Source of the DNA: an uncultured Rickettsiales bacterium
Lineage (GTDB): Bacteria > Pseudomonadota > Alphaproteobacteria > Rs-D84
Direction of reading: 5' to 3'
Assembly (NCBI GenBank): GCA_947176385.1
Contig: CAMWQN010000003.1
Span: 3,230 to 67,229 of the forward strand
DNA: 64,000 nucleotides
Shown: positions 9,712 to 50,814 of the stretch, one piece after another
Position numbering within the stretch: the first letter of the stretch is position 1
How the letters are laid out: each line of letters begins with the position of its first letter
Made by a program: the position numbers and the translations under genes
Notes under the pieces: generated by a model
Databases searched by the model: none
Told to the model about the DNA's origin: nothing
What the model saw: only the letters and a program-made list of their open reading frames with translations

Positions 9712-9736
9712 ACAAATAACAGATAACAAAGAACAA
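9712..9736 (+). repeat. Solo 25-nt copy of the inverted-repeat arm that flanks the four-helix-bundle cassette at 42.8 kb
   Basis: ACAAATAACAGATAACAAAGAACAA is identical to 42776-42800 and is the reverse complement of part of 43161-43193. Confidence 0.85.
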
Positions 9737-9739
9737 TTA

Positions 9740-9768
9740 TTGCAAACAGCAATTTAATCAGATATAAT
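9740..9768 (+). promoter_or_regulatory. Near-consensus sigma70 promoter of structured RNA copy 1
   Basis: TTGCAA (9740-9745), 17-nt spacer, TATAAT (9763-9768). The same hexamers and spacing occur in copies 2 and 3. Confidence 0.7.
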
Positions 9769-9774
9769 AGGTAT

Positions 9775-9933
9775 GCGTTGATGAATTGTCAGCGTGAGGT
9801 GTGAATACCTCTTTGAATACAAACTTCTCCAACTTGGTTGGAGGGTTGTGAAATATAAAAATAAACAACACTATCGTATTCAATAGTATTCAACCTCCAA
9901 CCTCTGTATATCTTTACAGCGGTTTTATTTTTT
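9775..9933 (+). ncRNA. Candidate structured small RNA, paralog 1 of 3 (unclassified family)
   Basis: No ORF. Aligns along its full length with 25908-25752 (-) and 48061-48219 (+). Contains conserved hairpins with compensatory changes and ends in a hairpin plus TTTTATTTTTT. Confidence 0.6.
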
Positions 9934-9936
9934 ACT

Positions 9937-9998
9937 GGTTGGGGGTGCGGAATATATTGAATACGCACGGGCATTTGAGACTGTTATCAGCCCCAACC
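9937..9998 (+). repeat. GGGGGTG...CCCCAACC palindromic repeat element, copy 1
   Basis: GGTTGGGG/CCCCAACC outer stem and GTGCG/CGCAC inner stem. Nearly identical to 25686-25748 (-) and related to 50925-51000 and 59827-59940. Confidence 0.7.
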
Positions 9999-10013
9999 AC
10001 CATAAATGACATA

Positions 10014-10042
10014 CCCCCGCAAATAATACGGGGGCTTTTTTT
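10014..10042 (+). terminator. Intrinsic terminator (plus strand; may also serve pheT on the minus strand)
   Basis: CCCCCG-CAAATAATA-CGGGGG followed by C and seven Ts. Confidence 0.75.
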
Positions 10043-10062
10043 ATATTCAATTACAATGCAAC

Positions 10063-25662: not shown

Positions 25663-25685
25663 GAATATAAAATAAATATGATGAT

Positions 25686-25748
25686 GGTTGGGGCTGATAG
25701 CAGTCTCAAGTTGCCCATGCGTATTCAATATATTCCGCACCCCCAACC
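25686..25748 (-). repeat. GGGGGTG...CCCCAACC palindromic repeat element, copy 2
   Basis: The reverse complement aligns almost base for base with 9937-9998. Confidence 0.7.
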
Positions 25749-25751
25749 AGT

Positions 25752-25908
25752 AAAAAATAAAACCACTGTAAAAAATACAGGGGTTGGAGGTTAAGAACTA
25801 CTAAAGGTAATAGTGCTGCTTATTCAAATATTTCACAGCCCTCCAACCAAGTTGGAGATTTTTTCCTTTAAGAGGTTCTTACACCTCACGCTGATAATTC
25901 ATCAGTGC
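25752..25908 (-). ncRNA. Candidate structured small RNA, paralog 2 of 3
   Basis: The reverse complement aligns with 9775-9933 and has the same hairpins and TTTTATTTTTT end. The central ~45 nt are divergent. Confidence 0.6.
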
Positions 25909-25914
25909 GTATTT

Positions 25915-25943
25915 ATTATATCGGATTAAATGCAGATTTGCAA
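25915..25943 (-). promoter_or_regulatory. Near-consensus promoter of structured RNA copy 2
   Basis: Minus strand has TTGCAA (25943-25938), a 17-nt spacer and TATAAT (25920-25915). Confidence 0.7.
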
Positions 25944-26007: not shown

Positions 26008-26142
26008 TTATTTTTTCTTAAAGCCTTGTTTCGCTTTCAACTTTGGATTATCTGGATCAATCAAGATAATCTGTTTACCACGACGGATTTGTTTTACATT
26101 ACCGCGTTTTTTCCAGGCCTTTAATGAACTTAAAAATTTCAT
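26008..26142 (-). CDS. rpmJ: 50S ribosomal protein L36, type B (zinc-independent, YkgO-like); below the ORF-track size cutoff
   Basis: My own translation gives MKFLSSLKAWKKRGNVKQIRRGKQIILIDPDNPKLKAKQGFKKK (44 aa). It parallels E. coli YkgO ([46 protein letters not shown]). An AAGGA RBS lies upstream. Confidence 0.8.
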   Translation of the reverse strand: MKFLSSLKAWKKRGNVKQIRRGKQIILIDPDNPKLKAKQGFKKK

Positions 26143-26457: not shown

Positions 26458-26754
26458 ATGAAACAGCAGGTATTAAAGGCGTTGGCAAATCCGGCACGTA
26501 TATTTTATGTGCCATATACGCTGGCGGTGATAAATTTCGCCGTGCTGTTTTTTGCATATATTATTATCGCAGTCGCATGGACGATTGTTATGGGTATGAA
26601 TAAGTTTCCAAGTCCAATGTACTTTTTAGTGATATTGATTGTGACACATATGATTTTGGCGACTTTTTCCAAGAAAGACCCGCAACTGGGGCAAATTATC
26701 GCCGCAAAAATTCAACTGTTTAAAAAGAAAATACCAGGGAGATTGGCAGCATAA
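26458..26754 (+). CDS. virB3: Type IV secretion system protein VirB3
   Basis: 98 aa with two TM helices and a VirB3/TrbD-like N-terminus (LALANPARIFYVPY). Lies immediately upstream of virB4. Confidence 0.75.
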   Translation: MKQQVLKALANPARIFYVPYTLAVINFAVLFFAYIIIAVAWTIVMGMNKFPSPMYFLVILIVTHMILATFSKKDPQLGQIIAAKIQLFKKKIPGRLAA

Positions 26755-26756
26755 CC

Positions 26757-29171
26757 ATGACAGATTTTTTTAACTATTTTGCCGGCAGTGGTTTTCCTTT
26801 GACGACTATCATTATGGTGATGGTGGTGATTTTTGTGTTTATTATCATGATGATGTATCTGCCGATGCTGACACGTAAATTGTTGCCACGTTTTGGGTAC
26901 GCACGTTATTCGCAATATCTGCCGTTCCAAACTGTCTATAATGATAACTCAATCGGGTTAACGAATGGCGCATTGATACGTGTATATCGTGTCCAGGGTG
27001 TCCAGACCAGTATGCAAAGCGATGAAACCAAGGCAAAATTCTTGGAACTGCGTGCACAATTATTTAATCAAATTCGTGACCCGAATGTCGTTTTACGGTT
27101 CTTTACCGTGCGTGATGCCGCGGATGAAAATACAAACTATGAATTTGACCAGCCTGTATTACAGAAAATTTATGACAAATGGAAATCCCAGGGGTTAAAG
27201 ATATTCTTGAACAACTATTATGTCGTATTGACTGTGAATGGCACAAATGCGCGTGATAAATTAAATCAATATGGGAACTATGTTGAGTCAATCTTGGCAG
27301 CATATAAACCATCTGTTCTGCGCAATGACAGCCCGGACAATATGGCGCGATTTTTTGGTCGGATTTTGTCACCGATAACCAAACCTGCGCCACGTGTATG
27401 TGATGCCAGTATCGCAGACGTTACAACTGTTGATGATGTTGTTTTCAGACGTGACGGTATTGTTCAATATATCGGTGGTGATCGCCAATCTTTCGCGGCG
27501 ATGGTGTCATTTAAAATATCACCGGACTATTTGGATGAAGAATTCTTTACATCAATATCAACCATTCAGACGGAAATGATTTGCATGAATGCATTTGGTA
27601 TCATGGGGGACGCGGATGTAGAGGTTGCAATGCGTCAACGCAAGACAACCGCCGATGGTGATGAAAATACTGCGGTTGAACAGTTATATGAAGCACAATC
27701 TGCGATGGATGAAAATATTTCCGGTAATCAGACACTGGTGAATTATTATCCGTTGTTTGCAATCTTTGCCCCCAGCGAACAAGAATTGCAAGAACATATC
27801 GATGAATTTAAAAAGATTGCGGCATCTTTTGGTGTATCCCCTATTGTTGAAACATATGCGTCCAAGGTTTCGTGGTTTGCGCAAATTCCAGGATTTGATG
27901 TTTTTCCACGCAGTTTTAAAATGCTGTCACGGACGGCTGCAATCAGTATTCCAATGGATACAACCCCACGTGGTGTGCCGAATTCAGACTGGGGTCCAGG
28001 ACCGCTGGTTATATTCCCGACCGCCCAGGGTACGCCATATCAATTCCAATTCCATGTGTCCCAGGCACCGGCAGCAGTGGCACATACGCTGACCATTGGA
28101 CCAACCGGTGGTGGTAAAACGACTTTGTTCAGTTTCTTGATTGCGCAGTCGCTGCGTCATCGTAAATTAAAAGCGTTCTTCTTTGACCGTAACAAGGGTG
28201 CAGAAATATTTACACTGGCGGTTGGCGGTAAATATGTAACCATGCATGGCAAGGATAAAAATACCGATGGTATTGATTTTCAAACACGCTTGAATCCATT
28301 GAAAATGCCGGATACTGCTGAAAATCGTGCGTTCTTGCGTCGTTGGTTGTCAATTATATCAGACCAAAATGATACCCAATCGGCAGATGAAATTGCACGT
28401 GCAGTATCGGTTAATTTTGACTATTTACCAGACAAAGACAGATTGCTGAAAAACCTGTGGGAAAGTTGTTTTTCATCATCTGGCAATATGCGTCCCGCAT
28501 TGAAAAAGTGGATTGATCCACTGCAATATGGCGATATGTTTAATGAAACGTCCGATACTTTGGATTTGGGCGCACGATTGACGACATTCGATTTTACCGA
28601 AATTTTACAGGATAAAACACTGGCACCTGCGGTTATTTCATACATATTGCATCGTATTAACAATACGACAATTTCAGGTGGTAATCCGTCGTTAATTATG
28701 ATTGACGAAACCGCACCTATGTTGGAAAACAAAATGTTCCGTGATAACTTTATCGTCGGATTACAAGAAGGACGTAAAAATCGCCAGGCATACATGGCAG
28801 CGTTCCAACGTGCAAATGTTTTGGATAAACTGGGGATTGGCGATGTTGTACGTGGTCAGGCACAGACTGTTCTGTTTTTCCGTAATCCGGCAGCCGATGC
28901 GCGTGATTATGAACATTGGAATTTAAATCCGTTGGAAATGGCATTTATTCAGGGACGCGCATATCCAAACCTGAAACGTGCGGCATTATTGTCACGCCCG
29001 GTGACAGGTGAATCTGTGATTTTAAATACAGAACTGGGTGGACTGGGGAATTTGTTAAGATTGTTTGAATCTGGACGTTCATCGGTATTGTTGGCAGAAG
29101 AATTGTATAAGCAGTATGGAAATGCGTTCGTTTCTGAATATCTGAAAAAGCAGGGCGCAGGTACATTGTGA
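26757..29171 (+). CDS. virB4: Type IV secretion system ATPase VirB4
   Basis: 804 aa with Walker A GPTGGGKTT and Walker B LIMIDE. VirB4/CagE architecture with an N-terminal hydrophobic segment. Confidence 0.9.
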   Translation: MTDFFNYFAGSGFPLTTIIMVMVVIFVFIIMMMYLPMLTRKLLPRFGYARYSQYLPFQTVYNDNSIGLTNGALIRVYRVQGVQTSMQSDETKAKFLELRAQLFNQIRDPNVVLRFFTVRDAADENTNYEFDQPVLQKIYDKWKSQGLKIFLNNYYVVLTVNGTNARDKLNQYGNYVESILAAYKPSVLRNDSPDNMARFFGRILSPITKPAPRVCDASIADVTTVDDVVFRRDGIVQYIGGDRQSFAAMVSFKISPDYLDEEFFTSISTIQTEMICMNAFGIMGDADVEVAMRQRKTTADGDENTAVEQLYEAQSAMDENISGNQTLVNYYPLFAIFAPSEQELQEHIDEFKKIAASFGVSPIVETYASKVSWFAQIPGFDVFPRSFKMLSRTAAISIPMDTTPRGVPNSDWGPGPLVIFPTAQGTPYQFQFHVSQAPAAVAHTLTIGPTGGGKTTLFSFLIAQSLRHRKLKAFFFDRNKGAEIFTLAVGGKYVTMHGKDKNTDGIDFQTRLNPLKMPDTAENRAFLRRWLSIISDQNDTQSADEIARAVSVNFDYLPDKDRLLKNLWESCFSSSGNMRPALKKWIDPLQYGDMFNETSDTLDLGARLTTFDFTEILQDKTLAPAVISYILHRINNTTISGGNPSLIMIDETAPMLENKMFRDNFIVGLQEGRKNRQAYMAAFQRANVLDKLGIGDVVRGQAQTVLFFRNPAADARDYEHWNLNPLEMAFIQGRAYPNLKRAALLSRPVTGESVILNTELGGLGNLLRLFESGRSSVLLAEELYKQYGNAFVSEYLKKQGAGTL

Positions 29172-42774: not shown

Positions 42775-42806
42775 AACAAATAACAGATAACAAAGAACAA
42801 ATGATG
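42775..42806 (+). repeat. Left arm of the inverted repeat enclosing the four-helix-bundle gene (includes its ATGATG start)
   Basis: AACAAATAACAGATAACAAAGAACAAATGATG. Its reverse complement matches 43155-43193 apart from a 7-nt TTCTTTG duplication there. Confidence 0.85.
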
Positions 42807-48025: not shown

Positions 48026-48054
48026 TTGCAAACAGCAATTTAATCCGATATAAT
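48026..48054 (+). promoter_or_regulatory. Near-consensus promoter of structured RNA copy 3
   Basis: TTGCAA (48026-48031), 17-nt spacer, TATAAT (48049-48054). The spacer differs by 1 nt from copy 1. Confidence 0.7.
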
Positions 48055-48060
48055 GTGTAT

Positions 48061-48219
48061 GCGCTGATGAATTGTCAGCGTGGGGTTTCAAAGCCTGTAA
48101 ATGTAGCGACTTCCAACTTGGTTGGAGGGTTGTGATATACATAAATAAACAACACTATTTGCTACATAATAGCTTTGAACCTCCAACCTCTGTATTTATT
48201 TACAGTGGTTTTATTTTTT
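48061..48219 (+). ncRNA. Candidate structured small RNA, paralog 3 of 3 (not followed by the GGGGGTG element)
   Basis: Aligns with 9775-9933 and ends with CTGTA-loop-TACAG plus TTTTATTTTTT. The second hairpin has a different sequence but is still self-complementary. Confidence 0.6.
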
Positions 48220-48232
48220 ATCATTGTTTTAT

Positions 48233-48793
48233 TTATTCAATGCAGCAGTTTACAGCATTGCGAACCCAGTTTTTTAACTTGCCCATTTTGCCGTCTGCAG
48301 GTGCGGTGACAACGTCTGTATCTTGTTTTGCGGCTTTGGTTTTCTGGGATGTTTTTACCCATTTTACATCTTTGACATCATCGCCCGACATAACCCCCAT
48401 ATTCAATCCCCAGAACATGCAATACAGACCGTATGAATCATCAAACAGGCTGTATGCTGTATCCTTGTCGCCGGCAGCCAGGGCTTTGGTTCCAACCTCG
48501 AACAATCGCATTGCGGATGCCAGCAAGTGCTTCGATATGCACCATACTTCGCCTTCGTATGATGGAATTATTTTCTGCATCATACGTTTACGCATTTCGC
48601 GTACTTCGTTTATCATATCGTAAAATTCTGTCTTGCCGGTTTTGGCACCCGAAAACATCAAGTGTTCTTCGATTGATATCAGGTTCATAATGCCGATTGT
48701 TAAATCTTGGTCGGATGACAGGTCTTTTGGATTCACCTTTTTCGCGGCATCCAGTTTTTCAACATATTCTTTTACGTTCTTGATTTTCTGCAT
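48233..48793 (-). CDS. Hypothetical protein (186 aa) ending in CCIE
   Basis: Long ORF with plausible coding character. No recognised domain. Confidence 0.45.
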   Translation of the reverse strand: MQKIKNVKEYVEKLDAAKKVNPKDLSSDQDLTIGIMNLISIEEHLMFSGAKTGKTEFYDMINEVREMRKRMMQKIIPSYEGEVWCISKHLLASAMRLFEVGTKALAAGDKDTAYSLFDDSYGLYCMFWGLNMGVMSGDDVKDVKWVKTSQKTKAAKQDTDVVTAPADGKMGKLKNWVRNAVNCCIE

Positions 48794-50111: not shown

Positions 50112-50196
50112 GTTTTTATTTATTTTTTTGCTGTGAATCAGGCTTTGACAGCCGATGTTTGTGCAACGATGTGATAACCAAATCAAGGAGTATAAT

Positions 50197-50814
50197 ATGA
50201 TATATGGTTATATTCGTGTCAGCACAGATAGTCAAGATTGCGAAAATCAAAAGATAGGAATCGAATCAAAAGCCACATCATTGGGGCTGAAAATAGATAA
50301 ATACATAGAAGACGCGGGTGTGTCCGGAACCAAAGAACCGAATGAACGCGCGCTGGGTGGATGTCTGGCAAAACTGAAATCTGGTGATATATTGATTTGT
50401 TCGGAACTGTCCAGGCTGGGGCGCAAAATGTTTATGATTATGCGTATTCTGGAACATTGTATGAAATCTGGCGCCAAGGTTTATACAGTCAAAGATGGTT
50501 ATGAACTGGGGGATAATATTCAATCCAAGGTTATGGCATTTGCGTTTGGTCTGTCGGCTGAACTGGAAAGAGAGTTGATTAGCCAGCGGACAAAAGAGGC
50601 TCTGTTTCGGTTAAAAAAACAAGGCAAAAAACTGGGGCGCGAATACGGCAGCCGGAACAAAAAACGCAAACTGGATGACAAAACCGAAATAATAAATGAT
50701 TTATTGCTGAAAAAGGTCCCAAAAACAGCCATAGCAAAACGGTTAAAAGTAAGTGAACCAACGCTTTACAGGTTTATTTCTTTGCAAAAATCTAATATTC
50801 AAACGAACCTTTGA
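50197..50814 (+). CDS. Small serine recombinase (resolvase/invertase family)
   Basis: MIYGYIRVSTDSQ catalytic-serine N-terminus, SRLGR motif and a C-terminal HTH (KTAIAKRLKVSEPTLYRF). AAGGAG RBS upstream of ATG 50197. Confidence 0.85.
   Translation: MIYGYIRVSTDSQDCENQKIGIESKATSLGLKIDKYIEDAGVSGTKEPNERALGGCLAKLKSGDILICSELSRLGRKMFMIMRILEHCMKSGAKVYTVKDGYELGDNIQSKVMAFAFGLSAELERELISQRTKEALFRLKKQGKKLGREYGSRNKKRKLDDKTEIINDLLLKKVPKTAIAKRLKVSEPTLYRFISLQKSNIQTNL

Follow-up and report, generated by a model that had tools for sequence, protein, structure and literature searches.

The window analysed here, a 64,000-nt stretch of contig CAMWQN010000003.1 from an uncultured Rickettsiales bacterium, contains three related RNA units, at 9740–9933(+), 25943–25752(−) and 48026–48219(+), referred to as copies 1, 2 and 3, respectively. 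A sequence-only reading of this DNA had described them as three paralogous structured RNA genes. We found that they are not a private trio of small RNA (sRNA) genes but orphans within a larger family, of which at least 85 distinct members are known; most of these are 5′ leaders situated directly upstream of an open reading frame (ORF). The family comprises promoter-proximal structured RNAs of ~160–240 nt whose hosts are probably uncultured gut Alphaproteobacteria. Covariation supports two mutually exclusive folds of these RNAs, and we favour the interpretation that the family acts as transcription-attenuation leaders, of which the three window units would be orphan copies.

The three units and their family

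The alignment of the three units, end to end from the −35 box through the U run, was borne out by their sequences, as was the presence of the same promoter, TTGCAA-17-TATAAT, in all of them. In copy 1, the promoter (9740–9768(+)) consists of a −35 TTGCAA at 9740–9745 and a −10 TATAAT at 9763–9768, separated by a 17-nt spacer; according to a promoter scan, it matches the sigma-70 consensus at 10 of 12 positions. The promoters of copy 2 (25915–25943(−); −35 at 25943–25938, −10 at 25920–25915) and copy 3 (48026–48054(+); −35 at 48026–48031, −10 at 48049–48054) are arranged in the same way. The sigma-70-type assignment is a match to consensus, with hexamers 16–18 nt apart at a conserved distance from the RNA. 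The pattern TTGCAAAN5ATTTAATCNGATATAAT occurs three times in the window versus 0.00 expected and is unique to the three copies; the 18-nt promoter core TCCAACTTGGTTGGAGGG likewise occurs three times versus 0.05 expected. At its 3′ end, each unit possesses the hairpin ACC.CTGTA-loop-TACAG.GGT followed by TTTTATTTTTT, the succession of hairpin and U tract seen in attenuators that use an intrinsic terminator.

With the start of copy 1 placed ~7 nt past the −10 box and its end at the U run, the predicted RNA spans 9775–9933(+) and is ~159 nt long. The corresponding RNAs of copy 2 (25752–25908(−), ~157 nt), which has the same architecture, and copy 3 (48061–48219(+), ~159 nt) agree with the transcript lengths of ~157–159 nt that the sequence-only reading had predicted. 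The minimum free energies (MFEs) of the three RNAs were −52.2, −49 and −60.2 kcal/mol (z-scores of −6.6, −5.1 and −7.7), respectively, and in none of the three did any of 200 shuffled sequences fold equally well. These data support the description of the units as genuine paralogous structured RNAs, each with its own sigma-70-type promoter and intrinsic terminator. Among the copies, the scaffold is 80–83% identical and the variable arms are 42–52% identical. The claim that the units contain no ORF holds insofar as the copies have none in common; closed sense-strand ORFs of up to 30 codons do exist but differ in each copy. No uptake signal sequences were found in the window.

A scan of metagenome contigs with a two-part sequence pattern yielded 89 loci, nearly all of which were true homologues. 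A covariance model, R1, built on 70 of these loci, detected 86 copies (85 distinct) at E ≤ 1e-5 in 487 kb of homologue loci, including 10 outside the search pattern. In the window, R1 detected the three known copies only, at 119–128 bits (119.6 bits with E 2e-31 for copy 1, 127.6 bits for copy 2 and 119.5 bits for copy 3). The homologues occur on metagenome contigs and, wherever a source was stated, this was a gut metagenome. Consistent with the proposed host range, the UDG encoded beside copy 3 has hundreds of relatives at 85–95% identity in metagenome assemblies, the few named ones being “MAG: Alphaproteobacteria bacterium” or “bacterium”. The window was also assigned to contig JAIDYT010000043.1 of assembly GCA_029057925.1. 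Three matches on viral contigs all lie beside prophage ends and have ordinary downstream genes, so they were uninformative. A scan of genome contigs with the 16-mer CCAACTTGGTTGGAGG was abandoned as too unspecific and bound to the short-loop subtype: of 105 loci, one, L044, was a true homologue.

The family is absent from Rfam and was not found in the literature. At gathering score, cmscan against Rfam 15 returned a single tRNA for the whole window and tRNAs only for 20 homologue-bearing loci. In E-value mode, copy 1 matched nothing beyond eukaryotic microRNA and small nucleolar RNA noise, and literature searches on the family's motifs and on structured RNAs of gut Alphaproteobacteria returned nothing relevant. 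The novelty claimed in the sequence-only reading stands with respect to Rfam families at gathering score, but is qualified by a sub-threshold likeness of part of the RNA to sRNA-Xcc1 in two homologues, described below.

Two mutually exclusive folds

The fold of the RNA differs from, and is richer than, the one proposed from the sequence: the “variable” arms form long-range helices, and covariation supports a second fold that excludes the first. In the first fold, State I, the 5′ hairpin P1 (GCGUUGAU-GAAUU-GUCAGCGU; 9775–9795(+) in copy 1, to which all coordinates in this section refer) precedes a long stem, made up of P2 and P3, that encloses a junction with P5, P6 and, in most members, P4. 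The 5′ arms of the stem (9796–9820(+)) contribute GAGGU and V1 (UGAAUAC) to P2 and V2 (UUGAAUAC) to P3. In the MFE fold, they pair with the 3′ arms at 9876–9897(+), which contain GUAUUCAA for P3 and GUAUUCA plus ACCUC for P2, and both helices covary. What had been read as a single central variable block of ~45 nt is thus two complementary arm pairs, V1/V1′ and V2/V2′, that build P2 and P3. The “second hairpin” of the sequence-only reading, GAGGT...ACCTC, survives in part: a local hairpin, P2′ (GAGG...CCUC, within 9796–9820(+)), can form as an alternative use of the 5′ arm, but it competes with the long-range GAGGU:ACCUC pairing.

Within the junction, P5 (9826–9844(+)) pairs region 1 (CUCCAAC, 9827–9833) with region 2 (GGUUGGAGG, 9836–9844) and is the proposed anti-antiterminator. 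P5 (CUCCAAC:GUUGGAG) was found in 76 of 77 MFE folds, and changes in its 5′ half are either G·U wobbles or compensated. The adjacent hairpin P6 (GUUGU...ACAAC, 9845–9869(+)) has a covarying stem (helix 7) and a conserved GAAAUA...AAUAA loop, for which the consensus across the family is aAUA...AAUAa. The intrinsic terminator, read from the sequence at 9900–9933(+), consists of a ACCUCUGUA/UACAGCGGU stem followed by UUUUAUUUUUU; its helix (helix 8) is 85.6% paired family-wide, with six covarying pairs.

On the model-based alignment, 94.6% of State I cells were paired, versus 73.7% in shuffled alignments. Two-sided changes were present in 43 of the 54 pairs, and the covariation score was 0.54, as compared to 0.16 for shuffled and 0.05–0.08 for slid controls. 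In P1, compensatory changes occurred in all eight pairs and 96.2% of the cells were paired. These covariation figures are somewhat inflated, as the alignment was fitted to the State I structure; nevertheless, given the slid controls and how varied the pair types are in P1–P3, there is little doubt as to the reality of State I. Structure-preserving covariation among homologues had been posed beforehand as a test of the RNA, and the changes in these 43 pairs provide it. The transcribed strand is fixed by the many G·U pairs and by reverse-strand scores of only ~20 bits.

The second fold, State II, arises because region 2 (GGUUGGAGG) can pair either with the upstream region 1 (CUCCAACC) or with the downstream region 3 (CCUCCAACC, 9894–9902(+)), to which it is perfectly complementary. 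The latter pairing forms P8, the proposed antiterminator. P8 was 99.3% paired, with four covarying positions, and the RNAalifold consensus fold contained both P8 and P7. The search pattern had fixed the motifs of regions 2 and 3, so their invariance in most members proves nothing. In five divergent homologues lying outside the pattern, however, region 2 reads GGUUCAGGAGG, GGUCGGGGGG, GUCGGGG, GGUCGGGA and GGCCGGGAGG, respectively, and in each of them regions 1 and 3 are both altered to match the changed region 2.

Two further helices of State II also covary. P7 is an alternative hairpin at 9871–9886(+) (CUAU at 9871–9874, AUAG at 9883–9886) whose loop is V2′, the 3′ arm of P3. In the family-wide form of P7, C[U/A]AU...AU[A/U]G, the pair 372:394 is U-A in 47 members, A-U in 35 and unpaired in one. 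In P2′ (GRGG...CCYC), the variable pair is G-C in 55 members, A-U in 15 and G-U in 13. According to Fitch parsimony on a neighbour-joining tree, these pairs changed state at least 10 and at least 23 times, respectively, indicating that the covariation of P7 and P2′ does not reflect a single inherited event. We rejected the coexistence of P3 and P7 as an H-type pseudoknot on geometric grounds: judging from the alignment columns, ~1 nt would need to span a helix of 8–9 bp.

The end of region 3 (AACC, alignment columns 411–414) is used both by P8 and by the base of the terminator stem beside the U tract; in copy 1, the last three bases of region 3 belong to the stem base. This overlap yields the layout of an anti-antiterminator (1:2), an antiterminator (2:3) and a terminator (3:4). 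By structural inference, then, the family possesses an antiterminator that overlaps the terminator stem and is mutually exclusive with it. The mean energies of States I and II were −55.4 and −45.5 kcal/mol, respectively, and State I was favoured in 76 of 77 members.

Downstream genes and orphan copies

Downstream sequence of at least 150 nt was available for 75 family copies; in 46 of these, an ORF preceded by a Shine–Dalgarno (SD) sequence starts no more than 60 nt past the model end, versus 5 of 85 in a mirrored control. The median gap is 26 nt, leaving no space for a further promoter. Upstream of the RNAs, a −10-like hexamer occurs at a fixed distance throughout the family (T 0.62, A 0.75, A 0.86 and T 0.69 at positions −6, −5, −3 and −1). 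Signal-peptide-like starts were present in 28 of the 46 downstream ORFs. The encoded proteins are mostly unannotated and secreted or cysteine-rich, the weak or partial matches being to Flg_new repeats, an Ephrin_rec_like cysteine-rich repeat, an HTH_31-like protein of 72–95 residues and one ABC transporter. In three loci, L188:4687–5053(+), L122:2678–2301(−) and L044:5092–4453(−), tandem same-strand pairs of the RNA precede a single ORF, and in the first two of these a promoter-like sequence precedes each tandem copy. Attenuation by a leader peptide was rejected: an ATG ORF is present in 50 of 82 members, but these are split 23/17/10 among the frames and only two have an SD sequence, such that neither frame nor SD is conserved. 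Downstream of the RNA in L129, L150 and L170, where the ORF would be, we observed a G/C-rich repeat, TTTAACCCCCTCC...CACTCCCCCAYATTGGGGGAG.

None of the three window copies has a downstream gene on the same strand. As the sequence-only reading had it, all lie between convergent gene 3′ ends, identified using Pfam as those of IF-2/PheT, SufBD-core/L36 and UDG/an unannotated 186-aa ORF; the last of these ends at 48233, beside copy 3. Nor, as had been noted, is there an adjacent reverse transcriptase or transposase gene, the flanking ORFs encoding IF-2, PheT, a SufBD-like protein, L36, UDG and the unannotated protein. The guide or template RNAs of mobile elements (retron msr/msd, IS110 bridge RNA, IscB/TnpB omega RNA) do not fit the family: no reverse transcriptase, transposase or nuclease gene adjoins the flanks of the window copies, and the ORFs downstream of the homologues encode secreted or HTH proteins rather than such enzymes. 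We also considered the loss of a downstream HTH gene, but nothing homologous to the 75-aa HTH protein was found in the window.

The U tracts of the window copies are the strongest in the family: eight of the nine bases after the terminator stem are U, versus a family mean of 6.1–6.2. This is not a property of orphans as a class, which do not differ from leaders (means of 6.17 and 6.13 U of 9, respectively); the window copies and L044 alone stand out. The site of copy 2 is empty in eight of nine compared related contigs that encode an identical L36, with an rpmJ–sufBD spacer of 83–112 nt versus 345 nt in the window. The ninth contig (L203) has another downstream gene and likewise lacks the element. 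At the site of copy 3, a relative with a 91%-identical UDG retains a degenerate 3′ half only. The empty sites and the degenerate remnant suggest that the orphans are evolutionarily young or unstable. For the site of copy 1, a look-up of relatives via L20 returned only the window's own genome.

Copies 1 and 2 share a half-element of ~70 nt past the terminator that the sequence-only reading had not recorded; within the window it is common to these two only, copy 3 having none. After copy 1, it occupies 9935–10003(+), comprises GGUUGGGGG, UGCG-GAAUAUAUUGAAUA-CGCA and CCCCAACC, and folds at −24.1 kcal/mol; after copy 2, it occupies 25683–25750(−). A further half-element follows the L044 homologue at ~4920–4850(−). 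The half-element resembles region 2, P6 and region 3 without the 5′ domain and is possibly a stand-alone three-way junction. Its alignment score against the core of copy 1 was marginal (31, versus a shuffle maximum of 30), and its homology to the family is proposed on the basis of the family loop motif GAAUAUAUUGAAUA and the common helix layout. A second hairpin followed by a T run (CCCCCG...CGGGGGCTTTTTTT, 10013–10045(+)) lies just past the pheT stop codon and could serve as an end point for read-through from copy 1; the scan reported this hairpin on the − strand.

Several other features were observed around the three units. A 25-nt repeat, ACAAATAACAGATAACAAAGAACAA, occurs at 9712–9736(+), just 5′ of the copy 1 promoter, and at 42776–42800(+) and 43192–43168(−), bordering the intergenic region at 42.7–43.2 kb. 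The L36 gene beside copy 2 (26008–26142(−)) encodes a 44-aa protein that scored 22.1 bits in Pfam, versus a family cut-off of 26.1 bits, and an identical protein was present in 172 assembly-index blocks. On this rpmJ side of copy 2, type IV secretion genes encoding VirB3-like (98 aa) and VirB4/TrbE-like (804 aa) proteins occupy 26458–29171(+). A mechanically called 183-aa TTG ORF at 48072–48623(+) begins within copy 3 and extends across the 186-aa gene in antisense orientation; although probably spurious, it marks the path of any read-through from copy 3. Approximately 2 kb downstream of copy 3, and not adjacent to it, is a serine recombinase (Resolvase) gene (50155–50814(+)). In a close relative (L197:5264–5663), an Mtd_N-domain gene occupies the Resolvase position, so this spot is variable.

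A candidate terminator switch and its alternatives

The interpretation that we favour is transcription attenuation. Transcription would start ~7 nt past the sigma-70-type −10 box. The nascent RNA would then adopt the closed State I fold, consisting of P1, P2/P3 from the variable arms, the optional P4, P5 (CUCCAACC:GGUUGGAG) and P6. This would leave the 3′ AACC free for the base of the intrinsic terminator, and transcription would stop. In State II, region 2 would instead pair with region 3 (CCUCCAACC) to form P8, and the local hairpins P2′ and P7 could form as well. P8 would remove four base pairs beside the U tract, allowing the polymerase to read into the downstream gene, which in most cases would encode a cysteine-rich secreted or surface protein or else a small HTH protein. 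As State I is more stable by ~10 kcal/mol, some factor, whether a small molecule, a protein or an RNA, would have to favour State II. Having strong U tracts, convergent neighbours and no following gene, the window copies should give rise to free RNAs of ~160 nt. We infer that such RNAs might act as decoys for the family's switching factor; alternatively, rare read-through might generate transcripts that enter pheT, the SufBD-like gene and the 186-aa ORF in antisense orientation.

The layout of the family is that of known terminator/antiterminator leaders, which include classical attenuators, riboswitch platforms and PyrR-type leaders. Like these, it has four segments that pair 1:2 and 3:4 versus 2:3, a segment 3 that overlaps the terminator base, a promoter-proximal position, in most members directly upstream of an ORF, and tandem copies. 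It differs in having neither a leader peptide nor a match to T-box, PyrR or other cis-regulatory families of Rfam, in the unusually large size of its sensor domain, and in that P2, P3 and P5 have the covarying competitors P2′, P7 and P8. For the gene-less copies, there are parallels in merRNA of Bdellovibrio and SreA/SreB of Listeria, which are orphan riboswitch-derived RNAs with a strong promoter and terminator and no downstream gene. Such free RNAs could titrate away the effector or function in trans; in those systems, the parent riboswitch and ligand are known.

Several observations weigh against attenuation. Support for P8 that is independent of the search pattern is limited to the five divergent sequences and RNAalifold. 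Given the ~10 kcal/mol advantage of State I, it may be that State II is never populated unless a factor intervenes. P2′ and P7 could alternatively represent intermediates of co-transcriptional folding. The genes downstream of the homologues have no common metabolic theme that would indicate a ligand. Moreover, approximately one third of the members, including all three window copies, have no ORF within 60 nt, so an independent role may be an additional, or the main, function of the RNA. Finally, the presence of a promoter before each tandem copy also fits independent sRNA genes.

These last two observations favour the alternative that the RNAs are independent trans-acting sRNAs. The window copies would then represent the normal form, always terminated and possibly acting via CCUCC segments that resemble an anti-SD sequence, and the following ORFs would be mere neighbours. 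That every unit, tandem members included, has its own promoter and terminator, and that the terminators of the window copies are very strong, is consistent with this idea, as is the finding that the nearest Rfam relative, sRNA-Xcc1, is a discrete RNA of ~88 nt. We nevertheless consider it unlikely, because it does not account for the association with ORFs (46/75 versus 5/85), it gives no obvious purpose to the three-way covariation of regions 1–3 or to the overlap of region 3 with the terminator, and the CCUCC segments are paired in both folds. A selfish or neutral repeat, such as a mobile promoter–terminator cassette or an element resembling a miniature inverted-repeat transposable element, with a functionless RNA product, is far less probable still. 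It would explain the empty sites of copy 2, the decayed 3′ half that stands alone at the site of copy 3 in a relative, and the extent of the homology among the window copies, which runs from the −35 box to the terminator or half-element. However, the compensatory substitutions in 43 of 54 pairs and the G·U pairs, which function on the sense strand only, indicate that selection acts on the RNA fold. Comparison of filled and empty sites revealed neither terminal inverted repeats nor a target-site duplication, and the placement of the family before ORFs is strongly non-random.

Two other proposals are compatible with attenuation, or are forms of it. The narrower of these is that the family is a small-molecule riboswitch, responding for example to a second messenger, with the multi-helix junction as the aptamer and P5, P8 and the terminator as the expression platform. 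In its favour, the complex core is well conserved and includes unpaired bases that do not vary, e.g. GAAUA...AAUAA and CRCNAU; the terminator/antiterminator platform is backed by covariation; and many copies occur per contig, some in tandem. The gene sets controlled by c-di-GMP riboswitches resemble the family's diverse surface and secreted protein genes. On the other hand, the two competing folds already explain much of the sequence conservation, the downstream genes have no metabolic or transport theme and share no pathway, and the family was found on gut-type metagenome contigs only. We regard a small-molecule ligand as doubtful on these grounds.

The remaining proposal concerns ancestry only, namely that the family is a distant, extended relative of sRNA-Xcc1 (RF02221), in which the three-way junction of P8, P6 and P7 would be the ancestral fold and the competing 5′ domain an addition. 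Positions 1–87 of the sRNA-Xcc1 model matched L133:433–508 at 35.4 bits (E 4e-5 to 7e-5), and L196:915–992 gave a full-length match of 32.9 bits; both are well under the gathering score of 53 bits. In the L133 alignment, the 9-bp closing helix and the two hairpins of sRNA-Xcc1 fall on P8, P6 and P7, respectively, forming the same three-way junction; this match of a model built independently of the family also speaks for State II. In these two members, the resemblance extends to closure by G-rich and C-rich strands and to an A/U-rich first hairpin loop, and both families are multi-copy and often lie just upstream of a gene. sRNA-Xcc1 was verified as an 88-nt RNA by Northern blot (PMC2996969). 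It occurs upstream of symE in Xanthomonas integron cassettes (10.1101/2025.06.18.660453) and of an ORF6N gene in APSE phages (10.1101/2020.03.17.996009), and seven copies are present in Xylella (PMC12189769). By contrast, its ~88 nt include no counterpart of the 5′ domain P1–P5, units of the present family being ~157–240 nt. Its sources are integron cassettes, genomic islands and phages of Gammaproteobacteria, whereas the present family derives from gut metagenome contigs and, by inference, Alphaproteobacteria. Furthermore, only 2 of ~40 homologue-bearing loci scanned gave any match. Copy 1 with its half-element, and the window copies in general, gave none at E ≤ 10; divergent G/C-rich members gave none to sRNA-Xcc1 at E ≤ 0.01 and no match to Rfam. 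Convergence could also account for a G-rich/C-rich closing helix with two hairpins. We therefore did not file the family under RF02221; a distant relationship is possible, though we lean against it.

If the attenuation reading is correct, the window units are of greater interest than three private sRNAs, as they would belong to a family of two-state terminator switches for which the structural evidence is strong. With 85 distinct sequences and covariation in 43 of 54 pairs, this structured RNA family would be both uncatalogued and unusually well supported. It would also be a natural case, rare and useful for the study of expression platforms, in which both conformations of a switch have left covariation signatures. 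More speculatively, the family may represent a new riboswitch-like class that controls a large set of secreted and surface protein genes in an uncultured lineage of gut Alphaproteobacteria, in which nearly every “off” helix has a covarying “on” competitor and highly expressed gene-less copies buffer the signal as decoys; we advance this extended version only tentatively. Whether RNAs derived from leaders serve as decoys is a question prompted by the orphan copies. Were the tie to sRNA-Xcc1 real, it could explain the position of that family upstream of genes in integron cassettes and phages, and this mobile-element sRNA family would be a minimal version of the same switch. For the organisms themselves, the attenuation reading would imply a co-regulated set of cysteine-rich secreted and surface proteins in little-known uncultured gut bacteria, probably Alphaproteobacteria, and would make the signal that controls these proteins directly testable.

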